From Patescibacteria group bacterium (GTDB lineage: Bacteria; Patescibacteriota; Doudnabacteria; UBA920), in the NCBI GenBank assembly GCA_013387205.1, contig WARV01000007.1, forward strand, positions 1-57,718: 57,718 bases of DNA. Direction: 5' to 3'. Each line of letters opens with the position of its first letter. Position 1 is the stretch's first letter. The notes under the pieces are model-generated. The model saw nothing but the letters and a program-made list of their open reading frames with translations, made no database searches and had not been told where the DNA came from. Positions 2 to 53,666 of the stretch are shown here, piece after piece. The position numbers and the translations under genes are program-made.

Positions 2-3000
2 GGAGCCACAGACAGCTATACCATGGTGCTTAACACCCAGCCTGCAGGAGATGTGACTGTCACCTTGTCATCTACGCCCGGGGCGACCACTTCAGTAGCA
101 AGTCTAATCTTTACTCCAGCCAATTGGGAAACTCCCCAGACCGTAACCATCAGCGGTACCCAAGCTGCGCCGGTAGGCATTTCAACCAGTACAATCAGTC
201 ATGTATTAAGCAGCTCAGACCCTAATTATCTTAATTTGAGCATTCCCGATATCAACGTGGCGGTTAGTCATGTAATGTTGCCTGGAGCGGGGTCGGAAAT
301 TCCAAGGCCAGACCTTTGGGTAACGGATAATGAGGTATTTACTTCAGCTGTGAGTGGAAATACTCTATATATAGGAGGGTCATTTTCATATGTCGGGCCC
401 AATACCGGAAGAGCCGCGTTATATGACCGGGCAACCAGAACCAGGAAAATATTTCCTAAATTTGACGATGCGGTTGAAGCTGGAGCACCTGATGGCAGCG
501 GTGGTTGGTATGTTGGGGGCAGCTACCAAACAATACGCGATGTCTCTAATGCGGCTTTGGCGCACGTTCTTCCCGATGGATCTCTCGATCCTAATTTCAA
601 TGCAAATTTTGTTGCTTGGTCAGAAGTTACCGCAATTGCAAAAAAAGGAAATTATTTATTCGTTGCCGGGGATGTAAAAATAGCAGGGGACAGTGTATGG
701 AATACGCTGCTGGTTTTGAACGCCACAACGGGTCAGGCCTATAGCTGGCGTCCAAATTTGTTGACTTGGAAGTACGCAGACACCAGTGCGGATATTTATT
801 CTATGTTAATAGACGGTAATACATTATATGTAGCCGGAAACATTACCAAAGCTGACGGTCAGGTCCGGTCCGGGGTTGTAGCTTACGATATTACCGCTCC
901 AACCGCGCCAACCCTTACTAACTTTAATCCTGTACTAACGTGGGCACCGGGGTGGAACCCGCTAAGGCCTGAGGTAAAGAATATGGTACTTAAAGGCTCC
1001 GTGTTGTATATTGGAGGGTCTTTCAGCACGGTCAATGGCCAGGCCCGGACTAATGCCGCAGGACTTGACTTAACCCAAATAAACGGCGGTCCCACTAATT
1101 TTGTTCCGGTGCTGGATGATAAAGTAAGCTCGTTAGCGCTAATTGGTGATACCCTGTATATCGCCGGAGACTTTACTCATGCAAACAGCCAGCCCCGCGG
1201 GGCTGGCGCGGCATATAATCTGCTTGACAATAGCTTGCTTAGCTGGGATCCTCAGTCTCGCTATATTATGGCAATGGCAACAGACGGAACGACGGTTTTT
1301 ATTGGCGGCTCGTTTGGCCAGGCTGGCGGGGTAACCAGTGACGGCGTGGGTTCTGTTGATGCGATTACCGGAAACGGCAACACTTGGAATCTGCAGGCAA
1401 ATAACTACATGTATAACATTATTGTGGGTGATGGCGAGGTTTTCTTCGGAGGCCGGCAATCAAGCATGGGCGGAGTATTAAGAAATAATTTAGCGGCTAT
1501 TGATCTCGTTACCGGCATGGCTACGGACTGGAATCCTGGCTCTAGCGCTTATATTTATAATATTGCGGCAAATAAAGATACTGTTTATGTGTCTTGCGCA
1601 GACCGTTGCTATAGTGATTGGACTATTGGCGGAACGAGTCAGAATTATTTAGCGGCTATTGATGCCGCTACCGGTTTGCCAATTCCGGCCTTCGACCCAA
1701 ATCCGGATTACGAAGTTGACTCCTTGCTTCTAACAAATAATCATTTGTATGTAGGAGGTCTATTTAGCACAATTGGGCACACCAGCTTGCCTCGCTTGCG
1801 GTTTTTGGCACGGCTGGATTTAACTACTGGAAGATCTGATGATTCGTGGGATCCGGAACCAAACTGGAACAGTGCGAGCTATAGCGGTTTGTATATTTCC
1901 GACATGAAAATGAGCGATAATGATTCGACACTTTACGTAGGAGGGTATTTCAACGAAATCGGAGATAAAACTGGGATTAATAGACCAGGGGCCGCAAGAA
2001 ATAATTTGGCGGCAATTGATACGGCAACTGGCTTGCCGACTGCCTGGGATCCTAATGTTAATAGAGGGGTTGATACCGTGGCGCTTAAAAATGGCATATT
2101 ATATGCCGGAGGAGGTTTTACATCGGTAAATAATCCGGCTACAAGCAGAAATTATATTGCTGCATTTGATACAGCTTTAAATACGAATAACGTTATGGCA
2201 ACGTTTAATCCCAATCCGAACTATTATGTCACTTCTTCTGCAATATCAGATGATGGCGCAACATTATATGTAAGCGGGGACTTTGATACAATTGGCGGAC
2301 AGAACCGAAATTATTTGGCTGCCTTAGATACTACTGATGGTTCTGTATTATCATGGAATCCGAATCCGGATCATGGAGGTGATTATTATGGCACAAATAT
2401 AAATAATGTAACGCTGGCCGGAGAGGCATTATTTGTGAGCGGGTATTACGCTGCTATGGGACCTATAGACCCGGAGACCGGATGGGCAAGCCATCTTCAG
2501 TCAAATCTGGCCCAGCTTGGGACCTTCAGCCCTTATGTCCCGCCGGTAGTTTTATCAGGCGTTACCTTTAACGAATCTTCCGGGTCCACCGCAGTCACGG
2601 TCGGCGGAGCCACAGACAGCTATACCATGGTGCTTAACACCCAGCCTGCAGGAGATGTGACTGTCACCTTGTCATCTACGCCCGGGGCGACCACTTCAGT
2701 AGCAAGCCTAATCTTTACTCCAGCCAATTGGGAAACTCCCCAGACCGTAACCATCAGCGGCACGGCCGCCGCCCCGGCAGGATTTTCCACTTCCACCATC
2801 AGCCACACGGTCACCAGCGCGGATGCCGGTTATGACAATCTAAGCATCCCGGACATTAGCGTGGCCGTCACCAATAATTTGGTTACGCCTCCTGCTGGCG
2901 GCTCCGGCGGTGGCGGATCTCTTCCTTCGTATTGCCAGTTGAACACCTCTGACGCTGCCTGCAGTCCTAGCAAGCCTGATGATGGAGCTAAGAATGATCC

Positions 3001-4891
3001 TCCGTGGAAACCCGATTACCAAGACAATCTTCCTTTAACCAAATGGACCGTGGATGAGCAATGCATGGCTTTTAGCGGACAAAGCGGCTGGTTTGGCAGG
3101 TATTTTGATTACCCCAAAGACCATCCGGACATGGAGCTCCCCGGCAGCCTTTGGAATAAGCACTTTGGTGATCCCTTATCCAAGGCTAAACCTTGGAGTG
3201 CGGATTGGTATGATCTCAAATATTTCCGTTTTGCCAAACTAAGCCCTGATTTGAAATTTGGCACGCACTTTTTCCCGTTTGATTACGCGCCGGAAAAATT
3301 CATTGCCGGGCATGCTAATTATTTTGGAAGCGAGTGGTCTTCCAAAGTCAGCGCGCCGGAAAACGATTACTCCTTCCGTATCTCTTCCGACGACGACTCG
3401 TGGATATATATTGACGGCAAGCTGGTTATGGATAATTCCGGCGTCCATGGCGCGACGACCAAAACCGGCACCGTGCGTTTAAATGGCACCCACCTGGTGC
3501 AAATTTTCTTTGCTGAGCGGCACACCGTTGAATCACACTTCTATTTTATTTTCGACGACCCGAAGGGACAAATCCGTTACGCTGCTTTTTCTTCCGATTG
3601 CCGGGAAAAACCCGTTGCGGAAAAACCTGTTGTGCCGGAACCGGAAAGTTCCGGAAATGGCACGGGTTTCGGTTCAGGCGCAGGCCTGGGCCCGGTTGCA
3701 TCCATTTCGCCTGCTCAGGGAAATGTCGGAATTGGAGAGAATAATGGGACGCCATTGCCTGTAAATGACGCGGGGTTAAATATGCCGGCAACAGCCGGGT
3801 TGGTTCCGGACTCCAGCCAAAAAGAACCATCAATAAAAATACAAATTTTTGACATCATTGCCGCAATCGGGCTTAATGCCAAAACAGCAATTGATAATTT
3901 GACTGTCTCGGCAAGAAATAGTACTGCCTTAAGGCCATTGATAAGCTTGGTCAGTTTGCGGCAAGCCGCCAAAGTTTCCGCCACGCTGGTTGCGCCTGCG
4001 GTTTTGGTGTCGCAGTATTCTTTGGCTTTGGGCCAGGCAGGCTGGGCGGATTTATGGCTGTATGCCTTGCGCTTCTTCTACGGGCTGATGATCCTATTTG
4101 GGATAAGGCACAGGCGGAAAGTTTGGGGCACGGTTTACGACAGCGTGTCCAAGCAGCCGCTTGACCCGGCCATTGTTGAGCTGGTCGATTTCGTGACCGG
4201 GAAGAGCTTGGAGCAATCCATTACGGATCTGGAAGGCCGCTTTGGTTTTTTGGACAAGCCTGGCAAATTTTTGCTCAAAGCCAAAAAGACGCACTACCAG
4301 TTCCCGACGCAGAGAATTTGGGGCAGCAGCGACGGGATTTACAACAACCTTTACCGCGGAGGACTGATTGCCGTGGAAGTTGGCGGCAACGTGGTCAGTC
4401 CTAATATCCCCATGGATCCTTTGGAGTTTGACTGGAACCAGATGGACAAGCAGCGGTTAGTCAAGTTCCATCCCAAGCTGGAAATGGCCCTGCATTGGAT
4501 TTTGTTTGTGTTGTTCTATTTGGGTTTTGTGCTTGCCCTGGCCAACTTTATCTTAATACCAAGCCTGGTTACGGGAATCCTGCTGGTCCTTTATGCGATT
4601 TACATCGCCTTGCGCTTGCTGATTCCAAACCCCAGGCTGTGGGGAAAAGTAATCAGCCAGGGCATTCCGGTTGAAGGTTTGGTGGTTGAGCTCAGTCCCA
4701 CGAAACTGCCGAATGTGGTCATGGGCAAGGCGAAAGTTTCGGCGCAGGGCAAGTTTTTCCTTAAAGCCCCGCCAGGGAATTATTTTCTGAAAGTCATTAA
4801 AAAGGGCGAGCAGAAGGTTGTCATCCTAAAAGCGATTAAGCTTAAGACAAACAAGCATTGGGCGGTAAACAATACGATAAAGATTAGTTAA
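2..4891 (+). CDS. Giant surface protein, 5' end outside the window (Ig/Calx-like module, beta-propeller repeats, second copy of the module, PA14 domain, C-terminal membrane module)
   Basis: Frame is open from nt 2 (GATDSYTM.., identical to the internal copy at 2605). Many blades of the type N(N/Y)LAAIDxxTGxxxxW(D/N)PN...LY(V/A)GGxF, which is delta-60/DUF5122-like. PA14-like GWFGRYFDYP..FRISSDDDSWIYIDGKLVMDNSG..VQIFFAERH. Pro/Gly linker, then hydrophobic helices and two CarboxypepD_reg-like segments (VWGTVYDSVSKQPLDPAIVEL; LWGKVISQGIPVEGLVVEL). Confidence 0.85.
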   Translation, partial: GATDSYTMVLNTQPAGDVTVTLSSTPGATTSVASLIFTPANWETPQTVTISGTQAAPVGISTSTISHVLSSSDPNYLNLSIPDINVAVSHVMLPGAGSEIPRPDLWVTDNEVFTSAVSGNTLYIGGSFSYVGPNTGRAALYDRATRTRKIFPKFDDAVEAGAPDGSGGWYVGGSYQTIRDVSNAALAHVLPDGSLDPNFNANFVAWSEVTAIAKKGNYLFVAGDVKIAGDSVWNTLLVLNATTGQAYSWRPNLLTWKYADTSADIYSMLIDGNTLYVAGNITKADGQVRSGVVAYDITAPTAPTLTNFNPVLTWAPGWNPLRPEVKNMVLKGSVLYIGGSFSTVNGQARTNAAGLDLTQINGGPTNFVPVLDDKVSSLALIGDTLYIAGDFTHANSQPRGAGAAYNLLDNSLLSWDPQSRYIMAMATDGTTVFIGGSFGQAGGVTSDGVGSVDAITGNGNTWNLQANNYMYNIIVGDGEVFFGGRQSSMGGVLRNNLAAIDLVTGMATDWNPGSSAYIYNIAANKDTVYVSCADRCYSDWTIGGTSQNYLAAIDAATGLPIPAFDPNPDYEVDSLLLTNNHLYVGGLFSTIGHTSLPRLRFLARLDLTTGRSDDSWDPEPNWNSASYSGLYISDMKMSDNDSTLYVGGYFNEIGDKTGINRPGAARNNLAAIDTATGLPTAWDPNVNRGVDTVALKNGILYAGGGFTSVNNPATSRNYIAAFDTALNTNNVMATFNPNPNYYVTSSAISDDGATLYVSGDFDTIGGQNRNYLAALDTTDGSVLSWNPNPDHGGDYYGTNINNVTLAGEALFVSGYYAAMGPIDPETGWASHLQSNLAQLGTFSPYVPPVVLSGVTFNESSGSTAVTVGGATDSYTMVLNTQPAGDVTVTLSSTPGATTSVASLIFTPANWETPQTVTISGTAAAPAGFSTSTISHTVTSADAGYDNLSIPDISVAVTNNLVTPPAGGSGGGGSLPSYCQLNTSDAACSPSKPDDGAKNDPPWKPDYQDNLPLTKWTVDEQCMAFSGQSGWFGRYFDYPKDHPDMELPGSLWNKHFGDPLSKAKPWSADWYDLKYFRFAKLSPDLKFGTHFFPFDYAPEKFIAGHANYFGSEWSSKVSAPENDYSFRISSDDDSWIYIDGKLVMDNSGVHGATTKTGTVRLNGTHLVQIFFAERHTVESHFYFIFDDPKGQIRYAAFSSDCREKPVAEKPVVPEPESSGNGTGFGSGAGLGPVASISPAQGNVGIGENNGTPLPVNDAGLNMPATAGLVPDSSQKEPSIKIQIFDIIAAIGLNAKTAIDNLTVSARNSTALRPLISLVSLRQAAKVSATLVAPAVLVSQYSLALGQAGWADLWLYALRFFYGLMILFGIRHRRKVWGTVYDSVSKQPLDPAIVELVDFVTGKSLEQSITDLEGRFGFLDKPGKFLLKAKKTHYQFPTQRIWGSSDGIYNNLYRGGLIAVEVGGNVVSPNIPMDPLEFDWNQMDKQRLVKFHPKLEMALHWILFVLFYLGFVLALANFILIPSLVTGILLVLYAIYIALRLLIPNPRLWGKVISQGIPVEGLVVELSPTKLPNVVMGKAKVSAQGKFFLKAPPGNYFLKVIKKGEQKVVILKAIKLKTNKHWAVNNTIKIS

Positions 4892-17122: not shown

Positions 17123-17794
17123 ATGGATAAAGATAAAAATACAACTCCAGTCGAAAACATTTCCCAGGAAAAGCAAGTCAGTTCGCCTAGGGTTTCCATA
17201 AAAACCACGTCAGCCGAATCCTGGTTTGCGGAAACAGAAAGCTTAAAGCCCGGCCAGTCCAGGTTTTTTTTGCCGTCGCAAAAAAAGCGTTCGCATTTTG
17301 GCAGGAACATTTTTATTTTGGTAATTTTAGGGCTTTTAAGTTTTGGCGGGTTTAAGGCGTATAAAATTTATTGGCCAAAATTGATTAATGCCAGACAGCC
17401 TTCGGCAGAAAATAATTTAACGACTAATGTGTCTGATAATATAAATCCGTACCAAGACAACCAGGAAGAAGTTTTGCCAAGAGGGGATGCTGCTACGACA
17501 ACTCCTGAACTGCCTGCGGCAGATGCGGCATCCACAACCCCGACAACTCCCGCTCCGAAAGTTGTCCCTCCGGCTTCGGCACCTGTTCCAGCCGGGCCTA
17601 AACTGAAAGTCAATAGTACTTCTACGGGATATTTGAATGTCAGAAGCGAACCTGCTTCATCCAGCAAGCTGGTTGTCCAAATACATCCCGGGGAAACGTA
17701 TCCTTACACGGAAACCAAATACGACTGGTATAAAATTACTTTGCCAGACGGCCAATCCGGCTGGGTCAGCGGAACGTATGTTACGAAACAGTAA
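17123..17794 (+). CDS. Membrane-anchored bacterial SH3 domain protein
   Basis: TM ILVILGLLSFGGF, a Pro/Ala/Thr linker, and a C-terminal SH3_3-like GYLNVRSEPASSSKLVVQIHPGETYPY..WYKITLPDGQSGWVSGTYV. Confidence 0.7.
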   Translation: MDKDKNTTPVENISQEKQVSSPRVSIKTTSAESWFAETESLKPGQSRFFLPSQKKRSHFGRNIFILVILGLLSFGGFKAYKIYWPKLINARQPSAENNLTTNVSDNINPYQDNQEEVLPRGDAATTTPELPAADAASTTPTTPAPKVVPPASAPVPAGPKLKVNSTSTGYLNVRSEPASSSKLVVQIHPGETYPYTETKYDWYKITLPDGQSGWVSGTYVTKQ

Positions 17795-17830
17795 ATTTTG
17801 ATCCCTGAGCCTGTCGAAGGGTCAAAATTT
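17793..17830. repeat. Hairpin carrying the CCCTGAGCCTGTCGAAGGG motif
   Basis: Stem aaattttga (17793-17801) / tcaaaattt (17822-17830) encloses ccctgagcctgtcgaaggg (17803-17821). It overlaps the SH3 gene stop. Confidence 0.75.
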
Positions 17831-17848
17831 ACTTGGAGTGAGCTATTT

Positions 17849-18118
17849 ATGGCCAAATGGAAATGGTATGTATATATTCTTGAATGTTTAGATGGAAGTT
17901 ACTATACTGGCAGGACTTGGAATTTTGATATTAGAGGTGAGCAGCATTATAATAAATTAGGATCAAAATATACTAAAGAACATGGTGTTAAAAGATTGGC
18001 ATATTTGGAAGAATTTGAAAATTTTGAAGAAGCTAGTTTAAGGGAAAAGCAGATAAAAGGTTGGTCGAGAGCAAAGAAACAAAAATTGATGAGTGGCGAG
18101 TGGGGAAGGTGGATATAA
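17849..18118 (+). CDS. GIY-YIG nuclease family protein (small, stand-alone)
   Basis: WYVYILECLDGSYYTGRTWNFDIRGEQH..GVKRLAYLEEFENFEEASLREKQIKGWSRAKK. ATG 17849 was preferred, because the upstream part of the ORF is the repeat element. Confidence 0.85.
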   Translation: MAKWKWYVYILECLDGSYYTGRTWNFDIRGEQHYNKLGSKYTKEHGVKRLAYLEEFENFEEASLREKQIKGWSRAKKQKLMSGEWGRWI

Positions 18119-18122
18119 GTAT

Positions 18123-18177
18123 CCCCTCGACAAGCTCGGGGAACAATGCATTGGTGTTGCCTGAGCCTGTTGAATGC
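18123..18177. repeat. Two further copies of the CCCTGAGC..TCGAAGGG-type motif downstream of the GIY-YIG gene
   Basis: cccctcgacaagctcgggg (18123-18141) is in inverted orientation relative to 17803-17821. cctgagcctgttgaatgc (18160-18177) is in direct orientation. Confidence 0.7.
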
Positions 18178-24772: not shown

Positions 24773-25169
24773 GGGGATGACGGATTTTGACAGGACTTTG
24801 ACATTTTCCAATATGCAAGACGAGTAAGCCTTCACACCTCGTTAAAATTGTTAAGGCATCATAAATGCTACTACTGCATTTGAAAAAGTGAAGACTGCAT
24901 TGGCTAACGCCTTTGCTCCTTCCTTCGTCCTCGCTTAATTTAAGTGAAGACACTTGCCCCATTCTCCATCTCAAGAATGGATAAGCAAGCTTATCTGAGG
25001 TTGCAACTTAGGCGTTTGATTTACTCGCCAAAGCCAAGTATTCGTAAATCAACCTTAATGTTTTAGTCGTCAGTTACTAGCATTAGGGCACTTTTAGCTG
25101 ACTAATCTTGTGAACAATTGGGAGTTGAGAAGATCTTGGACGCGGGTTTAACTCCCGCCATCTCCACCA
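24773..25169 (+). ncRNA. ssrA: tmRNA (transfer-messenger RNA)
   Basis: 5' GGGGAUGACGG pairs with 3' CCAUCUCC-ACCA, including the G3:U wobble. T-arm GCGGG-UUUAACU-CCCGC. The internal tag frame ends ..ANAFAPSFVLA-TAA (stop 24936-24938). Confidence 0.95.
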
Positions 25170-25715: not shown

Positions 25716-25937
25716 TTGATAAATTATTCGTCTTGTCCACCACGTACCATTCGCTACGCTCAGGTACGTGGCGCAGCCACGAACACTTGGGCAAATGGTA
25801 CGTGCAGTGTACCCGAACGCAGTGAGTGGTTCGCTGCCGCTAGCGCCGCCAGGCGACATGAGGAAGCGAGTGGTGAGTGCCCTGCACCGGAGGCTTTAGC
25901 CGACTGGTACAGGGCTGGCGCAGCAATAAAAAAATAA
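25716..25937. repeat. GC-rich block of stacked hairpins upstream of the second GIY-YIG gene
   Basis: ccacgtacc..ggtacgtgg (25739-25771) encloses ccattcgctacgctcaggtac, a variant of the TCGACAAGCTCAGG motif. gccctgcacc..ggtacagggc is also present. ORFs on both strands here look like artefacts. Confidence 0.55.
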
Positions 25938-25950
25938 AAGAGTATCTCAA

Positions 25951-26175
25951 ATGCCAATACAATTTCATTACGTATATATCTTACACAGCCTTAAAGATGG
26001 GCTGTTTTATGTTGGTTATTCCGATAATCTTAAGCAACGAGTCAATGATCACAACATGGGTAAAAATATATCCACTAAAAATCGCCGCCCACTTGAATTA
26101 ATTTTCTATGAAGCCTTCCCCAACAAGTTTGACGCACTATGTTTTGAATACCTTATTTTACTTAATTGTAATTAA
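25951..26175 (+). pseudogene. GIY-YIG nuclease family gene, probably C-terminally degenerate
   Basis: FHYVYILHSLKDGLFYVGYSDNLKQRVNDHN is a good GIY-YIG N-terminus. After ..ELIFYEAFPNKFDAL the expected REKxxK/GW-type tail (present in 17849-18118) is replaced by CFEYLILLNCN-stop. Confidence 0.55.
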
Positions 26176-26241
26176 ATTAAATCGGAGTATAATAAAAATA
26201 TAGCCTTAATCTAGGGAAATAAAATATTTTTCCTTGTTTTT

Positions 26242-27531
26242 ATGAAACGATATTTAATCGTGCTTTTGTTTTTTCTTATATTTGGGGGTATTTATATCTC
26301 CTCTCAAACAACCCAAGCCTATGGAGAGTGTTCTGAATATGGTTTGATGATCACTTATGATTCTTATACCCACACTTGCAAGTGTATGAGCGGTTACGTT
26401 TTTGGCAAAAACTTTATGGGAGAACCATATTGTGTTTCTGCTGACCAGGTGTGCCGCGATAAGCTCGGAATAATGTCTCGCTATAATTCTTTAAGTGACT
26501 CTTGTGAATGTAGTTACGGATATGTTATAGGCACGGACTCTATTGGTAGGACGCAGTGTATTTCCAGGGATGACCAATGCCATAAGCAGCTTGGTTATAA
26601 TTCAAGTTATAATATCTTAAAAAATGCTTGTGTTTGCAGGTCGGGGTACATAATTGACGGTGGAACTTGCCGAGACGGTGATACTGTTTGTAGGAATGAC
26701 CATGGTTTATATGCCGAATACAATAGTAGTTCTAATAGATGTGAGTGTGAAAGTGGTTATACTTTCGACGATAATAACCAATGCGTGAAAAAACAAAATA
26801 ACGTTTATTTCTATTTAAAGGAAGTTGATACGGATAACCGTGAAGCAATTATTAAAAGTGAGTATGACTATACTTATTACCTAATTCGTTATGGAATTGG
26901 CTGTTATAGTTCGAGCATTAAAAGATATTTGCGAAACGATATTGTTGTAAATTTGGGTATAGATTTTGACTTGGATACTTGGGATAAAATTGTCTTGCAG
27001 GATGATAATGAAACTTGCGATATAACCAGTGTTCATCGCGCGTCTTCGTCCGATACCTTAGTCCCAGTAGAAGAATCAGATTATACCTATGTTGCGCCCG
27101 TGCCTGCAATTGTTGCGCCGCCCACTCCTTTTATTAACAGTCAGACGACTGCTTTACCTAAAACTTGCCCGGAAGGCCAGGCTCTAACTTTAGATAAAAA
27201 AAATTGTGTATCTATCCCTGCTAATTCTCACGCCGCTTTAAACAGTAAGACAGATATTTGGGAGTGTGATGAAGGTTATAAAGAAGTAAACAATAAATGT
27301 ATAAAAATAGAAAATGTTTTAACTGTAAAACAGACACAATCAGATAGTGATGCTAAAGTTGTAGTGGAACAAGCTAGGTCCAACTCGCCGATTATTACAG
27401 CTTCTGAAAATAGCCAGAACCAACAAGGTGTGGCTCCGCAAAAATCTGAATCAAAAGTCAAATCCTTTTTTCGAGGGATTGGTAGAGGAATTGGAAACTC
27501 ATTTAAAAAAATTGGAAATTGGTTCAAGTAA
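26242..27531 (+). CDS. Secreted cysteine-rich repeat protein (EGF-like CxC..GY modules), unknown function
   Basis: Signal/TM IVLLFFLIFGGIYISS. At least four tandem modules of about 38 aa: C..(L/H)G....YN.....C.C..GY(V/I/T)......C. Confidence 0.7.
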   Translation: MKRYLIVLLFFLIFGGIYISSQTTQAYGECSEYGLMITYDSYTHTCKCMSGYVFGKNFMGEPYCVSADQVCRDKLGIMSRYNSLSDSCECSYGYVIGTDSIGRTQCISRDDQCHKQLGYNSSYNILKNACVCRSGYIIDGGTCRDGDTVCRNDHGLYAEYNSSSNRCECESGYTFDDNNQCVKKQNNVYFYLKEVDTDNREAIIKSEYDYTYYLIRYGIGCYSSSIKRYLRNDIVVNLGIDFDLDTWDKIVLQDDNETCDITSVHRASSSDTLVPVEESDYTYVAPVPAIVAPPTPFINSQTTALPKTCPEGQALTLDKKNCVSIPANSHAALNSKTDIWECDEGYKEVNNKCIKIENVLTVKQTQSDSDAKVVVEQARSNSPIITASENSQNQQGVAPQKSESKVKSFFRGIGRGIGNSFKKIGNWFK

Positions 27532-27542
27532 AATTACACTTT

Positions 27543-27857
27543 ATGTCACCATTTAGCAATCAACAAGAGTCCCCTGACAATCAGGCAATTAGGGAGTTGC
27601 GTGATGAAACTAAAGACTTAAATAAGACTTTAAAAAAGGCCATCAGAAGCACTGATAGATTTTCCTGGGCTTTTATGATTTTGGCTTTCGTGCAGATAGC
27701 TATTGGTTTATTTCAATACATCCAAGATTCTTTAAATTCCAATCCAAATAAATGGATGGGTCTTCTTTGGGTTTTAGTTTTAGTAGGAGTTATATTTGGA
27801 ATAATTAAGTCAGGATTTAAAGAAGATGTCAAATCGAAAAATAAAGATATAAAATAG
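27543..27857 (+). CDS. Small two-TM membrane protein
   Basis: Helices FSWAFMILAFVQIAIGLF and LLWVLVLVGVIFGII. It lies 12 nt after the upstream stop and 21 nt before the next start. Confidence 0.55.
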   Translation: MSPFSNQQESPDNQAIRELRDETKDLNKTLKKAIRSTDRFSWAFMILAFVQIAIGLFQYIQDSLNSNPNKWMGLLWVLVLVGVIFGIIKSGFKEDVKSKNKDIK

Positions 27858-27878
27858 TTTAACTTATCACAAAATATT

Positions 27879-30800
27879 ATGAACGAACAAATAATTTATA
27901 GAGGCTCAGAATGGAGAAAATGGGACTTACATATCCACACTCCAGCATCCTTCCACTGGAATGGTGGTAAAAAATTTTTAGAAGCAGACCAGGGTGAGCA
28001 AGAACAAATTCTTCAAAAAATGGTCGATGCGATAAATAGTTCAGATGTCGCTGTTTTTGCAATGACAGACTATTGGACTTTCGACGGATATCTTAAATTA
28101 AAAGATTTTGTAAAAAGAAATAATATAAAGTTAGACAAAACCGTTTTTCCTGGAATGGAGCTTAGAGTTGAAGCCCCCGTAAACTACAGACTAAATATTC
28201 AAGTAATTCTTTCTGATGAGCTTACCCAACAGCAATTACAGGATTTTAAGTCGAAATTAAAGATAGCGAGTATTAATAGAAATTTATCCGACGATGCTTT
28301 AAAAGATTTTGCAAGAAGCCTTGATGACAGTAAAGCAAAAGTTTGTGGATTTGGTTCCGTTTCTACATTAAGTGACATTCAATTGCTCCAATTGGGAGCA
28401 AAGACAGCAGAAGTGACCAAGGAATCGTTATGTAAAGACGCCTTTGAAGCCATCCCCGCGTATAGCGGTTACATTTTATTGCCTTATGACACTTCTGATG
28501 GTTTAAAAAACCTGGATTGGACTACTCATCCACACGATGATAATTATTTTATGCAATCCGCGGATTTGTTTGAATCACGTAACGATGAAACAGTCGACTT
28601 ATTTTTGTGTAGAACTACCGATAAAAATAAAAACTTTATTAAAAATTTTGTAAAGACAATAGGTGGTGAGCCGAAGCCAGTGGTATGCGGTAGCGATGCT
28701 CACAAAATTGAAGATTACGGTAAGTATCCTAATGGTAGAGTTACTTGGATAAAGGCAGATACTACATTTTTAGGATTAAGCCAGGTTATAAATGAACCTG
28801 CGGACAGGGCATATGTTGGCACACTTCCAGATAAATTAGTTGAGGTAAATAACCACAAATCAAAGTATATTGACTCAATCAAAATAACAAACACTCACGC
28901 CAGCGCTTCACCTTCTTGGTTTAGTAATGAGTTACCACTTAATAATGGTTTAGTAGCTGTGATTGGTAAGAAAGGAAATGGAAAAAGCGCGCTTGCTGAT
29001 ATAATAAGTCTTTGTGGGGACAGCAAGGTTAGCCCTGTGGAATACTCCTTTCTGAAACCTAATAAATTTAGAAAGCGCGGGTTGGCGCGCAATTATGAGG
29101 CCACATTAAATTGGCTTGATAGTCAAAAATCAAAAAAGAATCTTGATGAAGATGTTCAGATGGCAACGTCTGTTGAGAAAGTTAAATATTTACCTCAACA
29201 ATATGTTGAAAACATTTGCAATGAAGACGGAGTAAGCACCTTATTCCAGCAAGAAATTGATAAGGTAATCTTTTCTTACGTTCCAGAAGAAAGCCGATTA
29301 GGAACAAGGAGCCTCGCGGAACTCATTAAAATTAAGACTGAGTCGGTTGATAGTTCTCTTTTAACTGCGCGTGCGGATTTGCATAGAATCAATGAACGCG
29401 TTACTTCTTTGGAAGATAAGGAAAATCCAGAATATCTTGAGTCGCTAAACAAAAAGCTGGAAGGGAAAAATCAAGATTTAAAAAATTTATCCAAGCCAAA
29501 AGCTATAAAAAAACCTAAAACTACTTTAAGCAAAGTAAAAGAGAATAAAATCAACAGACTTACGTCCGCAATCTTGAAAGTTAACGGTCAGATTGATAAT
29601 GCTCGCGAAGAATTGAAAAATGTAAATAACAAACTCCACAAACTAAATAGAATTATTGATAAAATCTCAAATTTAAAAGAAGACATAGCTGGGTTAATTG
29701 AAACATTTAAAGAAGACGCAATAGAGCTTTCAATTGACTTATCTAAGGTAATTAATTTAAAAATTTCGGAAGCAGGTTTAATTACAAAGCAAGAAGGCTT
29801 ATTAACAGAAAAAGAAAAATTAGACAATAAGTTAGAACAGAATAATCCTAAATCAAAGGTAAGCCTTTTAAATAACAAAACAAAATTAGAGTCCCAATTA
29901 GAAAGCATCACTGAGACTCTTGGCGCAGACCAGAAATTATATGAACAGTATCAAAAAGAGCTAAAACTATTTGAAGAAAGGGAAAATGCAATAGAAGGTA
30001 AAAAAGGCGACACCAGTTTGGAAACCATCGCTGGTCTTGAAACTGAAATAGATTTTGTTAAAAATAAACTGAGTAGTGCGTTGCAAGAGCAGTATAGAAA
30101 ACGTGGCGATGCCCAAAAAAGATTATTTTTAGAAATTGAAAAAAAGATAGCTTTCTACCAAGAGGTTTACACCCCGCTTGTGCACTTCATAAAAAGTGAA
30201 GAAAAAACACAAAAAGAATCAGGGAGTGTATTAAATTTTAGTGCTGGGTTGATTTTTGATAAACAAAAATTTATTACAAACTTCTTTTCATTTATAAACC
30301 AAGGCAAGGATGGTAGCTTTCAAACTGTAGTAGGTGGCCAAAAAATACTCAATAATATTATAGAAAAATTTGATTTAACGAAAAAAGATGACGTTGGCAA
30401 ATTTGTTGATGATGTTATTGACCACCTAAAAAATGATAAAACCCAAATAACACCAAAGGCCAATCTTATAAAATCCCAGCTCAAAAAAGACCAGGTATCA
30501 TTCTACGATTTTCTGTTTGGTTTAGACTATCTGGGTGTTAAGTATAAAATACTTTTTAACGACAAAGACTTAAATGCGAATGAGTTTTCTCCTGGTGAGA
30601 AAGGAGCGTTGTTACTAATATTTTATTTACTTATTGATAAAGACAACGTGCCGCTGGTAATTGACCAACCAGAAGAAAATTTAGACAATGAGTCAGTGTA
30701 TACCTTACTTGTCCCTTATATCAAAAAAGCAAAGAACAGAAGGCAAATTATAGCAATTACTCACAATCCTAACCTTGCGGTTGTTTGTGATGCTGAACAG

Positions 30801-31046
30801 GTTGTTTGTGCTGTAATGGATAAAAAGAAAAATGAGATTAGATATACTTCTGGAAGCATAGAAGACCCTGCTACAAATAAAAAAATTGTAGATATTTTGG
30901 AAGGAACACTGCCTGCTTTCACGGTTAGAGATAGAAAGTATATCAGGAAGAAAATTAACGGTTCCAAACGAAAGAACTCTATACAGTTCGATACCAGCGA
31001 TTTAGCAATTGCTAAACTTCTTAAACAGGCAGAACTAAAACCCTGA
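27879..31046 (+). CDS. PHP-domain phosphoesterase fused to a Rad50/SMC-like coiled-coil ABC ATPase (Ppl-like defence candidate)
   Basis: PHP motifs WDLHIHTP, AMTDYW, GMELRV, CGSDAHK. Walker A VIGKKGNGKSAL, Q-loop YLPQQ, a coiled coil of about 300 aa, signature-like FSPGEKGAL, Walker B PLVIDQPEENLD, H-loop AITHNPNL. Confidence 0.8.
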   Translation: MNEQIIYRGSEWRKWDLHIHTPASFHWNGGKKFLEADQGEQEQILQKMVDAINSSDVAVFAMTDYWTFDGYLKLKDFVKRNNIKLDKTVFPGMELRVEAPVNYRLNIQVILSDELTQQQLQDFKSKLKIASINRNLSDDALKDFARSLDDSKAKVCGFGSVSTLSDIQLLQLGAKTAEVTKESLCKDAFEAIPAYSGYILLPYDTSDGLKNLDWTTHPHDDNYFMQSADLFESRNDETVDLFLCRTTDKNKNFIKNFVKTIGGEPKPVVCGSDAHKIEDYGKYPNGRVTWIKADTTFLGLSQVINEPADRAYVGTLPDKLVEVNNHKSKYIDSIKITNTHASASPSWFSNELPLNNGLVAVIGKKGNGKSALADIISLCGDSKVSPVEYSFLKPNKFRKRGLARNYEATLNWLDSQKSKKNLDEDVQMATSVEKVKYLPQQYVENICNEDGVSTLFQQEIDKVIFSYVPEESRLGTRSLAELIKIKTESVDSSLLTARADLHRINERVTSLEDKENPEYLESLNKKLEGKNQDLKNLSKPKAIKKPKTTLSKVKENKINRLTSAILKVNGQIDNAREELKNVNNKLHKLNRIIDKISNLKEDIAGLIETFKEDAIELSIDLSKVINLKISEAGLITKQEGLLTEKEKLDNKLEQNNPKSKVSLLNNKTKLESQLESITETLGADQKLYEQYQKELKLFEERENAIEGKKGDTSLETIAGLETEIDFVKNKLSSALQEQYRKRGDAQKRLFLEIEKKIAFYQEVYTPLVHFIKSEEKTQKESGSVLNFSAGLIFDKQKFITNFFSFINQGKDGSFQTVVGGQKILNNIIEKFDLTKKDDVGKFVDDVIDHLKNDKTQITPKANLIKSQLKKDQVSFYDFLFGLDYLGVKYKILFNDKDLNANEFSPGEKGALLLIFYLLIDKDNVPLVIDQPEENLDNESVYTLLVPYIKKAKNRRQIIAITHNPNLAVVCDAEQVVCAVMDKKKNEIRYTSGSIEDPATNKKIVDILEGTLPAFTVRDRKYIRKKINGSKRKNSIQFDTSDLAIAKLLKQAELKP

Positions 31047-31144
31047 TGGTTTATATCTCTTTATTAGCTGAAATTGTTGAATAATTTTTTCTAAATAATC
31101 GTGCCAAGACGCAGAGACCTTGTCCACCTTATAATAAAAATTAG

Positions 31145-31176
31145 ACCACCCTTCGATAAACTCAGGGTGGTTTTTG
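31145..31176 (+). terminator. Hairpin terminator whose loop carries a CCCTTCGATAAACTCAGGG motif copy
   Basis: accaccct..agggtggt followed by ttttt. The motif is at 31149-31167. Confidence 0.65.
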
Positions 31177-31221
31177 TTAATGGGTTGTGTTTCTTTTTCT
31201 ATCCACAGGGGATAAAAACTT

Positions 31222-31233
31222 GTGTGCTATAAT
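31222..31233 (+). promoter_or_regulatory. Extended -10 promoter of the riboswitch transcript
   Basis: TGTGCTATAAT, with TATAAT at 31228-31233. There is no good -35. Confidence 0.45.
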
Positions 31234-31249
31234 ATTTTTACAACTTTAT

Positions 31250-31440
31250 ACGATTAGTTCCCCCCAAGCGTGCGGGGGTTGGCCAGGGAATCCGGTTAGA
31301 TTCCGGAACTGTGCCGCAACTGTAAAATCCCTGCTTAGGCAGGGAATGAGTCAGATTGCTGGCTAGCTAATTGTACGTCGTCCTTCGCTTTCCGAGCAGG
31401 AAGTGGGGGATTTAAGGTTGTATCCACAACAGAAGAAGGG
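31250..31440 (+). promoter_or_regulatory. Cobalamin (B12) riboswitch
   Basis: GCCAGGGAAUCCGGUUAGAUUCCGGAACUGUGCCGCAACUGUAA matches the conserved AGGGAA.CCGGUGAAAAUCCGG..CUG.CCCGCAACUGUAA core. It is preceded by a CCCCC..GGGGG hairpin. A B12-box-like GAGUCAGAUUGCUGGC follows, in which CUGGC can pair with upstream GCCAG. Confidence 0.75.
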
Positions 31441-31444
31441 AAAA

Positions 31445-31876
31445 ATGAAACGCAGAACTCTGCTGAGCGTGTTTTTTTGCAGTCCCGTCCTGGCGGCTGT
31501 TCATTCCGTCAGTCAGGTGTTAAATGACGGCAGTCTTTACCAGTCCGGTTACCGGAACGGCTACCCTTTTAACTCGACAGTTAAGGTTGGCTCCGATGCC
31601 AGCGTGGCTAAGTACGAACTCAACCTTACCTGCATGCGGGCAAATACGGTAGAAGGAATGCTCCGCGCCGCCGGATTCGAGCTGGGGATAAAGAACGACT
31701 TTTCCAGCCTGCCGGGACAAGCGCTGATAAACGTAGTAGAGGATGTAGCCGGAAGTTTCAACATTCTGGTTAACGGCCAATTGTTTTTGTTTGACAGCGC
31801 ATCCACCTATAAAGTGGCAGCTGGCCAAAAAATCACAGTCCGCCTCGCCGCTCCCGGCACCATGGTTCCCAAATAG
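31445..31876 (+). CDS. Riboswitch-controlled secreted protein (143 aa), possibly a DUF4430 / transcobalamin-beta-like B12 binder
   Basis: Purine-rich RBS-like GAAGGG 5 nt before ATG 31445. Signal peptide MKRRTLLSVFFCSPVLAAVHS. The C-terminal half TVEGMLRAAGFEL..GQALINVVEDVAG.SFNILVNGQ..SASTYKVAAGQKITVRL resembles my recollection of the DUF4430 pattern (..L...G.......G.fi.sI.G....W.y.VNG.....a..y.v..GD.I.f.y). Confidence 0.7.
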   Translation: MKRRTLLSVFFCSPVLAAVHSVSQVLNDGSLYQSGYRNGYPFNSTVKVGSDASVAKYELNLTCMRANTVEGMLRAAGFELGIKNDFSSLPGQALINVVEDVAGSFNILVNGQLFLFDSASTYKVAAGQKITVRLAAPGTMVPK

Positions 31877-31940
31877 CCCGAACGGGAAAATGCGAGTAAA
31901 TTTAGCCACTGCCTTGCTCTGTTTTCTGCCCAAACCTGAG

Positions 31941-31975
31941 CCGCCTTGATTTCCATATCAAGGCGGTTTCGTTTT
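31941..31975 (+). terminator. Rho-independent terminator
   Basis: ccgccttgat-ttccat-atcaaggcgg followed by tttcgtttt. Confidence 0.75.
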
Positions 31976-32006
31976 ATCTTTGGAGTATTGTCCTAGAAGT
32001 ATTTTC

Positions 32007-32042
32007 AACGGCTAAATCCTAAAAATAGGCGTTTTAGCCGTT
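32007..32042. repeat. AACGGCTAAA-family hairpin
   Basis: aacggctaaatcc-taaaaata-ggcgttttagccgtt. Confidence 0.75.
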
Positions 32043-32047
32043 TGTTT

Positions 32048-32130
32048 ATGTCATTCCCGGCCAGGTTGGAATCCATGCTTTGATATTAATTAGAATCCTG
32101 GATCCCGGATTGAGTCCAGGATGGGGCAAG
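32048..32130. repeat. TGTCATTCC(C)GG-type palindromic element
   Basis: It starts tgtcattcccggccagg and contains aatcctggatcccggattgagtccaggat hairpins. It is related to 33152-33241. Confidence 0.55.
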
Positions 32131-32321
32131 GATGTGTTTATAAATTCTGGATTTTTTTATGATTTTTGGTATGATGAATTAAGAGTAATTAAATTAACCC
32201 CGTATAACATCATTCGATTTTGTTACAGTATCCAACATATTGAAAACAACTAGGCTCAGACTATTATCAAATTTTGATTTTACTGACCATATCGAATGTT
32301 GTATTACGGGGCAAGATAAAA

Positions 32322-33113
32322 ATGCTCAACAATTTAAAAGCAAACAAAATTTTATGGGTGCTGGTCGCTGTGTTATCCATAATCGCATCGCTTGCCGGAA
32401 TTTCATCCAAAGCTTCAATTTATAACGAAGTTGTCGGTGCTAATTTAATTTCCGGAGCGTTTGGCCAGGATTTAATGAGCTTAGCCGCGGGCATCATCTT
32501 ATTTTTACTGGCTTTGTTTTCCAAACAGGGGAGCACGAAAAAACACATTGTCGCGCTTGGCCTGCTTGGCTACTTCTTTTACGCTTATGGAATTTATGTA
32601 ATTGAACGGGCGTATAACGCATATTATTTGCTTTACATGGCAATTTTTGCCCTCTCATTTTGGGCTATGGTTTACGGCTCGTTTAACATCAGCAAAGAAT
32701 TATTGCAAAAAGCAGGGCTTTCAAACCGCGTCCGCGTTTTCTCGTTAATCGTGGCAATCTTTCAGCCAGTAGTTTTTTATCCGCTCTGGATATCCGCGCT
32801 TCTTCCTTTAATGCGCACGCATAACCGGATTGAATCTTTATATTCCATTTACATTTTAGACCTTTGCTTTATAATGCCGGCATTTTTGATTTTGGCTTAT
32901 TATCTGCTAAAGGAAAAAGTAATAGGTTATTTGCTTTCCCCGGCAATGTTCATTTTAGGATTTACATTGATATTTTCTTTAAGCCTTAGCGAACTGGTAA
33001 AGCCGATTTTTGGCGGAACTACTGACATAGGCAGCTTGGTTTCTTCTCTGGTTTTGTCGATTTTATTTTTATCTGCCTCAGTCTTGCATCTTGGAAAATT
33101 AAAAACGCAATAA
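32322..33113 (+). CDS. Polytopic membrane protein (about 8 TM), unknown function
   Basis: Regularly spaced hydrophobic helices. ATG 32322 gives an N-terminus just ahead of the first TM. Confidence 0.6.
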   Translation: MLNNLKANKILWVLVAVLSIIASLAGISSKASIYNEVVGANLISGAFGQDLMSLAAGIILFLLALFSKQGSTKKHIVALGLLGYFFYAYGIYVIERAYNAYYLLYMAIFALSFWAMVYGSFNISKELLQKAGLSNRVRVFSLIVAIFQPVVFYPLWISALLPLMRTHNRIESLYSIYILDLCFIMPAFLILAYYLLKEKVIGYLLSPAMFILGFTLIFSLSLSELVKPIFGGTTDIGSLVSSLVLSILFLSASVLHLGKLKTQ

Positions 33114-33151
33114 AATAATTAATAATGATGAAATTTTAAAATCTCGTCATT

Positions 33152-33241
33152 TGTCATTCCGGGAGCCACGAAGCGAAGCGGAGATCTGCCCGGAATCTAT
33201 GCGTTGATAGATTTTAGATTCCCGCCTTCGCGGGAATGACA
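33152..33241. repeat. TGTCATTCCGGG...CGCGGGAATGACA palindromic element
   Basis: Terminal inverted repeats tgtcattcc / ggaatgaca. Internal cgaagcgaagcg, cccggaatc and attcccgccttcgcgggaat hairpins. Confidence 0.7.
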
Positions 33242-33415
33242 TTATGTGGATTATCTGTTTTGAGAACTTTCAAATTAAAGAATTAACTTAACTTATGGAA
33301 AACAAACAACTGTTAAAACTCGGAATTTTTTCAGCAATATTTTTAGGGTTGGGGATTGTGCTCTCTGGCCCCTTTAGTGTTTAAATTTAAACTGGATAAA
33401 ACCGTCTAGTTGTAT

Positions 33416-33742
33416 ATGCTCAAATTTTTAAAAACATTCCATACTTCCATATGGGTGGTAATGGCAGCGTCCAATTTCCTGGCTTTTTACTTTGCTTACA
33501 TGGGCAGGTTTGATGGTTGGTTTTGGGTTCCTGCTTTGCTTTTAGGTTTTGAATGTGTTGTTATTGCCGCTAACGGATGGAAGTGTCCGATTACCAAAGT
33601 TGCGGAAAAATATACCGATGACCGCAAGCCTAATTTCGATATTTACCTGCCTGAATGGCTTGCAAAATACAACGTCAAGATTTTCTCTGTTTTAATAGCT
33701 TTGGAAATTTTAATCGTATTGGTTAAATATTTATTTATGTAA
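33416..33742 (+). CDS. Small membrane protein with a W(K)CP(I/L)T motif, DUF2784-like
   Basis: Three hydrophobic helices, with NGWKCPITKVAEKY between helices 2 and 3. The first ATG is 33416. Confidence 0.5.
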   Translation: MLKFLKTFHTSIWVVMAASNFLAFYFAYMGRFDGWFWVPALLLGFECVVIAANGWKCPITKVAEKYTDDRKPNFDIYLPEWLAKYNVKIFSVLIALEILIVLVKYLFM

Positions 33743-33800
33743 TCCGCTTTTTCAGAGGACTTGCTACTTGTCTGCTAGTGGAAGGAAGATGCTTTTTATC

Positions 33801-33832
33801 CCTCTATATTTGACGGCCGTCAAATATAGAGG
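33801..33832. repeat. Perfect 32-nt palindrome centred on ACGGCCGT
   Basis: cctctatatttgacgg|ccgtcaaatatagagg. Confidence 0.85.
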
Positions 33833-33927
33833 AGTAATTAAAATGTAGATAAAACAACCCCTTGTAAATGCAAGGGGATTTTGGTATTATTTAACGTTAC
33901 AGGAAGACATCTATAAAAGGAGGGTAA

Positions 33928-34389
33928 ATGAATAAGTCGTTTTTGGTTCCGAGAGTTCTTGATGACGATGAGGATTTTCCGATTTCCCCGTTGGATATCG
34001 ATGTCTCAAATACGCTGAATTTTGTCGGCGCATTTGACATACCGGGGTTACCCGACATCAATACCAACTACACCAACGAGAAGATGAATGAAGGCGCGAC
34101 GATAGTAGTCAATGCGTGCCAGAAACAGGGGCATTGGGGGCCTTGTGATCCCTTTGGGCTAGTATATGGCCACGAGGAAGCAACATTTTCGCTGTATACA
34201 TTTCTCCATAACAAACAACACCAATTCAGCGGGATGGTTGTAAAGGGTGATAATGGCCTCTGGCGTGTGACCAACGCTTTCATCATTTATTGTTATTTGG
34301 CGGCGCCAAAAAAACGCAAAAGGCAACGCGCGTTGTCATCTCAACAAGCATTTCCATCTGCCGTAGCAGAAATCGAATCTGCTACATAA
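33928..34389 (+). CDS. Hypothetical protein (153 aa)
   Basis: RBS AAAGGAGGG 5 nt before the ATG, acidic N-terminus, basic KKRKRQR patch. A terminator follows. Confidence 0.6.
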   Translation: MNKSFLVPRVLDDDEDFPISPLDIDVSNTLNFVGAFDIPGLPDINTNYTNEKMNEGATIVVNACQKQGHWGPCDPFGLVYGHEEATFSLYTFLHNKQHQFSGMVVKGDNGLWRVTNAFIIYCYLAAPKKRKRQRALSSQQAFPSAVAEIESAT

Positions 34390-38978: not shown

Positions 38979-39073
38979 AATTACCTATATTTTAACATTT
39001 TTGCCGATCAAGGACAAAATAGCAATATGGCATTTATGTTATTTTGCCCAAGGGCAACTGCTCATCTACCCTA

Positions 39074-39231
39074 TGTCATTGCGAGGAATCAGGGCTTCAT
39101 CTGATTCCGAAGCAATCTGTCTTTGGGCGTCATCCTGAGCCTTTCAATTGCTAATGAAAGGTGAAGGATCTCTAAATAGATTGCAACGGTCCAATATTTT
39201 AACGCTAATAATATTGGACCTCGCAATGACA
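39074..39231. repeat. TGTCATTGCGAGG...CCTCGCAATGACA palindromic element, copy 1
   Basis: 13-nt terminal inverted repeats. Internal gaatcag..ctgattc, cgaagcaatc, gtcatcctgagcc and ccaatatt..aatattgg hairpins. Confidence 0.75.
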
Positions 39232-39275
39232 GTGAGTAGTTGCGCCTAAGGTGTTTCACTTTTTCCGCGGTTTTA

Positions 39276-53135: not shown

Positions 53136-53666
53136 TCATTCTTCAAGATCTACCACATCACCATTGGTGATGTGGTTTTTTTCTGTCCATCCGGCGTTGA
53201 TTTCAAGAACGCTGTCAACACTGGAAGGAGGGTAGTATAATTTTAGATTTTTAATTTCAGAACCTGCCCTGAGCTTGTCGAAGGGTTTTAGATTTTTGCC
53301 TGGGGCTGGGACGTTGGGAGTTATGCCGATAATTTTTTTATCTTTTATCCAAATAAAGTCCAGACTGAAATTCATATCCTTCATCCAAAAGCCCGGCGTC
53401 TGGCTGGCGCCTTGGCCGAAATCAAACAGCATGCCCTGGTTGTCTGAAAGTTTTTCACGGCCCGACAATCCTTGCTTCATTTCGTCGGAAGTTTTAGCGA
53501 CCTCAACCAAAATAATTTTGCTTCCAACCTTCAGCCTGGTGCCGTAATTATAATTTTGTTCTTGCTTGGTAGGGGACATAGGAGACGTCGGCTCCTTACT
53601 GCATGACGCAGATACCAACAGTGCAATTACCATCAAGAAAATTATTTTTGCGGAATGTTTTTTCAT
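53136..53666 (-). CDS. DUF192-domain lipoprotein with a 15-codon repeat-derived insertion
   Basis: Lipobox LVSASC. DUF192 core GLSGREKLSDNQGMLFDF..GFWMKDMNFSLDFIWI. C-terminal VLEINAGW. Confidence 0.75.
   Translation of the reverse strand: MKKHSAKIIFLMVIALLVSASCSKEPTSPMSPTKQEQNYNYGTRLKVGSKIILVEVAKTSDEMKQGLSGREKLSDNQGMLFDFGQGASQTPGFWMKDMNFSLDFIWIKDKKIIGITPNVPAPGKNLKPFDKLRAGSEIKNLKLYYPPSSVDSVLEINAGWTEKNHITNGDVVDLEE

Follow-up and report, generated by a model that had tools for sequence, protein, structure and literature searches.

RPE-1 of Rickettsia, credited to Ogata et al. 2000, is reportedly palindromic selfish DNA that sits in frame in protein genes and is tolerated in surface regions. 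Repetitive extragenic palindromes (REPs) with GTAG and CGTC tags have been described as superfamilies that include intragenic REPs (Di Nocera, De Gregorio and Rocco 2013, PMC3733652). Rickettsia RPE-4 and RPE-6 are identical with CGTC REPs, Neisseria dRS3 is also included, and CGTC REPs are stated to lack a dedicated transposase (PMC3733652).

Here, we analysed a 57,718-nt stretch of DNA from a Patescibacteria group bacterium (contig WARV01000007.1, hereafter the window), in which a DUF192 gene holds a 19-mer motif between two copies of a 12-mer. Because palindromic repeats in frame within genes are already known, as intragenic REPs and as the RPEs of Rickettsia, the DUF192 locus adds one more example. 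We consider it likely that a solo, minimal REP-like hairpin of ~24 nt (core GAGCTTGTCGA, short stem) was copied in frame into a native, hypervariable DUF192 loop without target duplication; its 24 nt, coding for PFDKLRAG, would interrupt the native 13-residue loop GKNLK|SEIKNLKL. The original prediction had read the locus as an insertion footprint flanked by a target-site duplication, a reading that most likely does not hold.

The extra segment in the DUF192 loop

The 12-mer TTTTAGATTTTT is present in two exact copies whose starts lie 45 nt apart, and the 19-mer CCCTGAGCTTGTCGAAGGG lies between them without a mismatch, inside an intact gene (Table 1). Read on the plus strand, the copies are ttttagattttt and the enclosed motif is ccctgagcttgtcgaaggg. 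The exact duplication, its period and the enclosed 19-mer had all been claimed and were confirmed at their positions; the minus-strand protein reading KNLK-PFDKLRAGSEI-KNLK was likewise borne out by ORF translation and a Pfam match. With up to three mismatches allowed, the 19-mer matched the 57.7-kb window four times, against 0.01 matches expected by chance. Exact direct repeats of at least 12 nt at 13-100 nt spacing numbered three in the window against 0.81 expected; since 9% of resamples reach three, a local 12-mer repeat is in itself not rare. In simulated sequence of gene-like composition, a fixed site had a 12-mer common to both of its 60-nt flanks in 1 of 3000 runs. The 12-nt repeat around the DUF192 motif is thus real and not a product of chance, and its origin is a separate matter. 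The 91-nt region around the insert displayed no unusual folding stability (RNA z -0.06, DNA z +0.61), and Rfam at gathering thresholds returned nothing at the motif, the only hits in the window being a tmRNA and a cobalamin riboswitch.

Table 1 Coordinates of the DUF192 locus, hairpin copies and GIY-YIG genes in the window
Feature	Position	Strand	Description
DUF192 gene (PF02643)	53136-53666	minus	176 aa, intact frame, lipoprotein-like N-terminus; Pfam E 7.4e-26
Direct repeat copy 1	53286-53297	minus	Codons KNLK, residues 124-127; judged to be native to the loop
19-mer hairpin core	53267-53285	plus	4-bp stem CCCT/AGGG closing conserved GAGCTTGTCGA; stem covariation
Inserted segment (most likely extent)	53262-53285	plus	24 nt, ACCTG+CCCTGAGCTTGTCGAAGGG; minus-strand codons PFDKLRAG; from deletion scan
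Spacer between insert and repeat copy 2	53253-53261	minus	Codons SEI; judged native
Direct repeat copy 2	53241-53252	minus	Codons KNLK, residues 139-142; native
Family copy	17803-17821	plus	1 mismatch; long extended stem 17790-17833, z -4.9
Small GIY-YIG nuclease gene	17849-18118	plus	89 aa, PF01541 E 3.6e-16; bracketed by inverted copies 17803 (+) and 18123 (-)
Family copy CCCCGAGCTTGTCGAGGGG	18123-18141	minus	2 mismatches; 4 nt past GIY-YIG stop
Related hairpin	25740-25771	plus	Loop ATTCGCTACGCTCA, z -3.6; starts GC-rich hairpin cluster upstream of second GIY-YIG gene
Second GIY-YIG gene	25951-26175	plus	74 aa, C-terminally truncated; PF01541 E 9.8e-17
Family copy	31149-31167	minus	2 mismatches; tops 8-bp stem (31145-31171) followed by T-run, terminator-like, z -3.05
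Longer superfamily member	39132-39169	plus	CGTC-ATCCT-GAGCC...GGTGA-AGGAT, inner stem, z -3.07; resembles CGTC-tagged REP

The product of the DUF192 gene covers positions 2-95 of the 96 in the PF02643 profile. Its AlphaFold model superposes on the crystal structures 3PJY (TM 0.83) and 3M7A, with core pLDDT above 90; the PFDKLRAG loop region, at 61-68, is the sole low-confidence stretch of the domain and is ~16 residues longer than in 3PJY. The protein contains NVPAPGKNLKPFDKLRAGSEIKNLKLYYPPS in the context NVPAP-G-KNLK-PFDKLRAG-SEI-KNLK-LYYPPS. Defining the loop as the stretch from the conserved P of NVPAP to the Y of YYPPS, we compared it across 119 homologues, all Patescibacteria-type DUF192 proteins. 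Loop length was most often 9 residues but ranged between 7 and 23 (21 in the query), and PFDKLRAG appeared in none of the 119 aligned sequences. Because the motif is absent from these homologues and loop length is very variable, the motif is foreign to the gene, and there is good support for extra sequence in a surface loop that tolerates it. The closest homologue among 5.8 billion proteins was 52% identical overall and at most 67% identical in the core.

The predicted insertion stands as a foreign segment in a variable loop, although most likely not at its proposed size of 45 nt. A deletion scan, in which every contiguous deletion of 0-15 residues was scored against homologous loops of equal length, ranked exact removal of PFDKLRAG first on both scores (BLOSUM 31; identity 7/13), and on this comparison the added DNA is most likely 24 nt. 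What remains of the query loop is GKNLKSEIKNLKL, with 13 residues, of which seven are identical to IQNSKSEMKNLPV (P0030) and seven to DSNQKSQDSNLKL (P0029). The nine homologues with 13-residue loops share the consensus x-[KGS]-N-x-K-x-x-I-[KG]-N-L-[PK]-x and an internal period-7 repeat, as in DSNQKSQ|DSNLKL and VGNVKRQ|IGNLPK, and similar patterns are found in loops of 12-16 residues. The best source for an empty site is homologues that are only ~60% identical in the core, with no close relative among them. The extension cctgCCCT of the 19-mer was found again in other genomes, and the 10 nt adjoining the DUF192 19-mer (tcagaacctg) match the extension of one such copy (L102, tcagagcctg) at nine of ten positions; because of this match, an element of ~30 nt (PFDKLRAGSE) is possible. 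An insert of 36 nt flanked by CAGG was ruled out, as GKNLK has a native counterpart in homologue P0061. The DUF192 gene would have survived because the length of the insert is divisible by three, the 19-mer is open in five of its six frames and the loop varies between 7 and 23 residues among homologues.

Several further features of the gene and its relatives were observed. In DUF192 loops of 12-16 residues the period-7 repeats recur, some with paired cysteines (CQLSAAN|CQLPV, VNCKSSI|VNC...); slippage, structural symmetry and the footprints of past insertions are possible causes. In homologue P0014 (L133 480-989), the corresponding place in the loop is occupied by another insert, PVGRSFSGSG, which has 30 nt and lies between the copies of an exact direct repeat, TTGGAAATT, with a period of 51 nt. 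A terminator-like hairpin at 53152-53176, consisting of a perfect 12-bp inverted repeat with a T-run behind it, falls within coding sequence at the 3' end of the DUF192 gene, 33 nt past the stop of the convergent KsgA gene.

Origin of the 12-nt direct repeat

Comparison with homologous loops indicates that the 12-nt repeat is probably native loop sequence and not a target-site duplication, since both KNLK blocks and SEI have counterparts in loops that are uninterrupted. Copy 1 corresponds to the loop AKNLN of P0061 (DNA GCA AAA AAC CTA AAT) and also fits x-[KGS]-N-x-K in the consensus of the 13-residue class. The spacer SEI is matched by SEM in P0030, whose uninterrupted loop reads SEMKNLPV (DNA ...AAT TCA AAA | TCT GAG ATG AAA AAT TTA), and by GEI in P0014, which shares the DUF192-KsgA-UvrD arrangement of the window and retains ...GEIGNLPA. 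Copy 2 aligns with KNLP, ENLP and GNLP in many DUF192 homologues. The repeat would thus be native, with no target-site duplication, because the loop already held a period-7 internal repeat.

A true target duplication is unlikely. It would require a 33-nt mobile element to have entered an ancestral GKNLKL and duplicated a 12-nt target (AAAAATCTAAAA), which would yield the 45-nt period and leave the repeat as its footprint. An exact 12-mer does bracket the motif, and bracketing of this kind arose by chance in only ~1/3000 simulations. The resemblance of the 10 nt beside the 19-mer to the L102 extension would leave little 'filler' in the element, and an 11-nt repeat flanks one other family copy (L080), where it recurs in frame at a period of 72 nt. 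However, the empty site with a single KNLK, GKNLKL, would be a loop of six residues, below every loop among the 119 homologues. The counterparts of KNLK and SEI and the outcome of the deletion scan also speak against this account, and the 33-nt segment has no terminal inverted repeats. Nor do flanking duplications run through the motif family, where their presence had been proposed as a check: among the 132 family copies listed, direct flanking repeats of at least 9 nt accompany 11, mostly as tandem arrays of the motif itself, and are absent from 121. Inverted flanks of at least 9 nt are enriched (19 of the 132 copies listed versus 16 of 393 controls).

A mixed origin, in which a hairpin of 24-30 nt was inserted and the exact 12-nt identity arose then or later, is more doubtful still. 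Repair synthesis, slippage or gene conversion acting on half-repeats that were already similar could account for the identity. The two KNLK blocks are identical at 12 of 12 nucleotides, compared with 7/12 to 11/15 in uninterrupted homologous loops, and because an old native repeat should have drifted from full identity, the repeat is possibly tied to the insertion event. Consistent with such an origin, the syntenic P0014 has its unrelated 30-nt insert between the copies of a 9-nt exact repeat at the same spot, and the period-7 repeats of many loops suggest repeated local duplication. Against it, two steps would be needed, and homologues show similar half-repeats in loops that hold no insert at all.

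An assembly artefact (a chimeric join of metagenomic reads), or a chance or native origin with PFDKLRAG as an ordinary part of the protein, is hardly credible: the window does resemble a metagenome-assembled contig and assemblers can be misled by short repeats, but the frame is kept, conserved DUF192 sequence continues on both sides, nine other genes, in independent assemblies, carry in-frame copies, an exact 19-mer in 57.7 kb is a negligible chance event even by the count expected at three mismatches, and none of the 119 homologues has the motif.

The hairpin family and the small GIY-YIG genes

The 19-mer belongs to a hairpin repeat family that resembles REPs. A scan with one genome per species found it unchanged at 120 or more genome loci of many phyla; the matches listed include Bacteroidota, Cyanobacteria, Actinobacteria, Proteobacteria, Chloroflexi, Acidobacteria, Planctomycetes, NC10 and several CPR lineages. 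The 19-mer stays identical although its flanks range from AT-rich to GC-rich, and such identity across phyla would therefore require that the hairpin either has a conserved reader or is often transferred horizontally. Copies usually top a longer palindrome, often occur as inverted pairs and sometimes form tandem arrays. As in REPs, each is a short imperfect palindrome forming a stem-loop with a shared consensus, and within the 57.7-kb window four close copies and about four variants were seen. Among the 134 19-mer copies listed, 19 have YGTC or CCTC tags and 45 have CGTTC, the commonest head.

Stem covariation was assessed in all 125 occurrences of the 11-nt core other than the exact 19-mer, chosen regardless of pairing. 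The four positions flanking the core pair in 80-87% of these copies, compared with 37.5% expected at random, with at least nine fully paired stem types (including GGCT/AGCC, TGGT/ACCA, TGCT/AGCA and CACT/AGTG), while the core and its closing T-A pair are constant. This pattern of paired changes indicates selection on the hairpin. The DUF192 copy has only the minimal 4-bp stem, compared with the long stems of the intergenic copies in the window (z -3 to -4.9). Hammerhead, k-turn and tRNA-like readings of the core were dropped as unlikely, as the conserved positions do not fit. A literature search found no description of the 19-mer or its peptides, which are also absent from PMC3733652 and its supplements.

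The family was also claimed to land in ORFs without breaking them, and this is upheld by at least nine other Pfam-confirmed genes, in other genomes, that carry an in-frame copy: alanyl-tRNA synthetase (AlaRS), methionine synthase (MetH), an M17 aminopeptidase, an HsdR-like helicase, PolX, an M13 peptidase, a tryptophan halogenase, RlmM and an E2 acyltransferase. Read directly from the sequence, the 19-mer is open in five of six reading frames. In AlaRS (L113), comparison at the protein level revealed 16 extra residues that are absent from eight orthologues; a nucleotide-level pair of filled and empty sites was not found for this gene, its homologues being at most 77% identical. In the M17 aminopeptidase of a Saccharibacteria genome (L018, ~3000-3090), the in-frame 19-mer adjoins an 11-bp inverted copy of the neighbouring coding sequence (CAACTAAGACC tac GGTCTTAGTTG), an arrangement which hints that insertion or later growth may copy flanks in inverted orientation.

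Within the window, the three intergenic copies of the original prediction (at 17803, 18123 and 31149) were confirmed with one or two mismatches each. Of its weaker variants, 39133-39168 was retained as a match to a stricter hairpin pattern and 25740-25771 as a hairpin, but 18160-18177 is only a degenerate partial copy. The copy with the extended stem 17790-17833 lies directly upstream of the small GIY-YIG gene and overlaps the stop codon of the upstream gene. In the stem at 18123-18141, a T-A pair is replaced by C-G, a compensatory change.

Other features lie near these copies. The hairpin with a T-run at 31149-31167 is 70 nt upstream of the cobalamin riboswitch (31239-31380; Rfam 33.7 bits, threshold 31.5). 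At 39068-39118, a TGTC-ATTGCGAGG...CGAAGCAAT hairpin precedes the CGTC-ATCCTGAGCC...GAAGGAT hairpin at 39132-39169, with an inverted partial copy, cctcgcaatgaca, at 39219-39231; the hairpins of 39068-39235 resemble a head-to-head cluster of CGTC-type REPs. Behind the GC-rich hairpin cluster, the truncated GIY-YIG gene starts ~780 nt downstream from the gene for tmRNA (24773-25169), a type of gene well known as a hot spot of integration. G+C is 0.35-0.40 at 26001-34000, compared with 0.42-0.50 elsewhere in the window, and this stretch may be an island that starts just past the tmRNA and the truncated GIY-YIG gene.

The association of hairpins with small GIY-YIG genes extends beyond the window. 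Inverted stem-GAG...CGA-stem hairpins stand on both sides of such genes at 17790-18141 and at the loci L064, L121-L128, L132 and L138-L149. A search pattern of 4-bp stem, GAG, 3-45 nt, YGA and complementary stem, with a chance rate of ~6 per 57.7 kb (~0.1 per kb), placed hairpins within 250 nt of 9 of the 13 GIY-YIG genes in a first set; a further six independent loci were all adjoined by hairpins, in most cases as inverted copies on either side of the gene. Each lineage has different neighbouring genes. The proteins have 87-90 residues and the catalytic domain PF01541, with no second domain. One locus (L138) shares its extended stem with the window copy at 17790-17833, and the long stem would therefore belong to the cassette; a GIY-YIG relative (L131) is flanked by palindromes of the CGTCATTCCCGCG... 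type. By analogy, the hairpin-flanked GIY-YIG gene looks like a cassette comparable to the REP-flanked RAYT gene. A GIY-YIG gene was present at only 1 of the 120 listed exact-19-mer loci (locus sequence of at most 8 kb), most copies being solo; this rarity counts against the link, but would be expected if one gene serves many solo repeats.

We propose tentatively that this widespread family of 87-90-aa GIY-YIG proteins may have its cognate elements in the 19-mer and related hairpins (stem-GAG(C)...(T)CGA-stem, CGTC-type REPs among them). Spread of the hairpin family would be REP-like, through recognition of the hairpin and without target duplication, and the best candidate for the recognition enzyme would be the small GIY-YIG nuclease, encoded between inverted hairpin copies. 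Alternatively, copies could spread by template switching at hairpins in replication or repair. Against this role, GIY-YIG enzymes are known to act as nucleases and not as strand-transferases. The alignment of GIY-YIG proteins matched no relatives in viral contigs, and a literature search found no paper linking GIY-YIG proteins to REPs or to such hairpins. If the proposal is true, the nuclease and hairpin would form a REP-and-enzyme system parallel to REP/RAYT with a different enzyme, the nuclease would supply the 'missing' partner of REPs reported without a dedicated transposase, and the system would explain how hairpins land in frame in the genes of many phyla. If the link is functional, a single small protein and a 19-nt oligonucleotide would be enough to test what moves or maintains the repeats.

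Comparison with known systems

MITEs and insertion sequences share with the DUF192 locus a short foreign segment between the copies of a direct repeat. They differ in that the DUF192 segment has no terminal inverted repeats and only a 4-bp hairpin stem, its direct repeat has counterparts in uninterrupted homologues, and target duplication is not seen across the rest of the family. RPE-1 measures 100-150 bp and is confined to Rickettsia, whereas the DUF192 insert is most likely 24 nt and its family occurs in many phyla. GIY-YIG homing endonucleases of the I-TevI and Seg types combine a catalytic with a separate DNA-binding domain; the 87-90-aa proteins described here have the catalytic domain and no second one. 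Homing endonuclease genes lie in an intron or between conserved genes and have a cleavable, gene-less allele.

Similarity to the CGTC REPs is partial. Both they and the 19-mer family are short, multi-copy palindromes, often arranged in head-to-head pairs, mostly downstream of genes and sometimes in frame inside known genes. In the window, the elements at 39068-39118 (TGTC) and 39132-39169 (CGTC) agree with the CGTC REPs in the tag and in the AT that opens the stem. CGTC REPs have a stem of 8-9 bp starting with AT, a loop of 4-5 nt and a CCA tail, to which the 19-mer does not conform; it has a 4-bp stem around an 11-nt core, or alternatively 7 bp with two G-A mismatches and a 5-nt loop. A CCA tail is not enriched in the 19-mer family, its commonest head is CGTTC, and the DUF192 copy has ACCTG in place of a CGTC, TGTC or CCTC tag.

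In organization, the family can be set beside the REP/REPIN-RAYT systems (Nunvar 2010; Bertels and Rainey 2011). Both comprise dispersed hairpins without target-site duplication and an associated gene between inverted copies of the repeat, and in both the repeats vastly outnumber the gene. The gene product differs, however: RAYT is a Y1 HUH transposase, and the flanked gene here encodes a GIY-YIG nuclease of ~89 aa. The GTAG head of REPIN/RAYT elements is seen in the 19-mer family in a single case (L118). Finally, REPINs are lineage-specific and vertically inherited, whereas the 19-mer is identical across many phyla.
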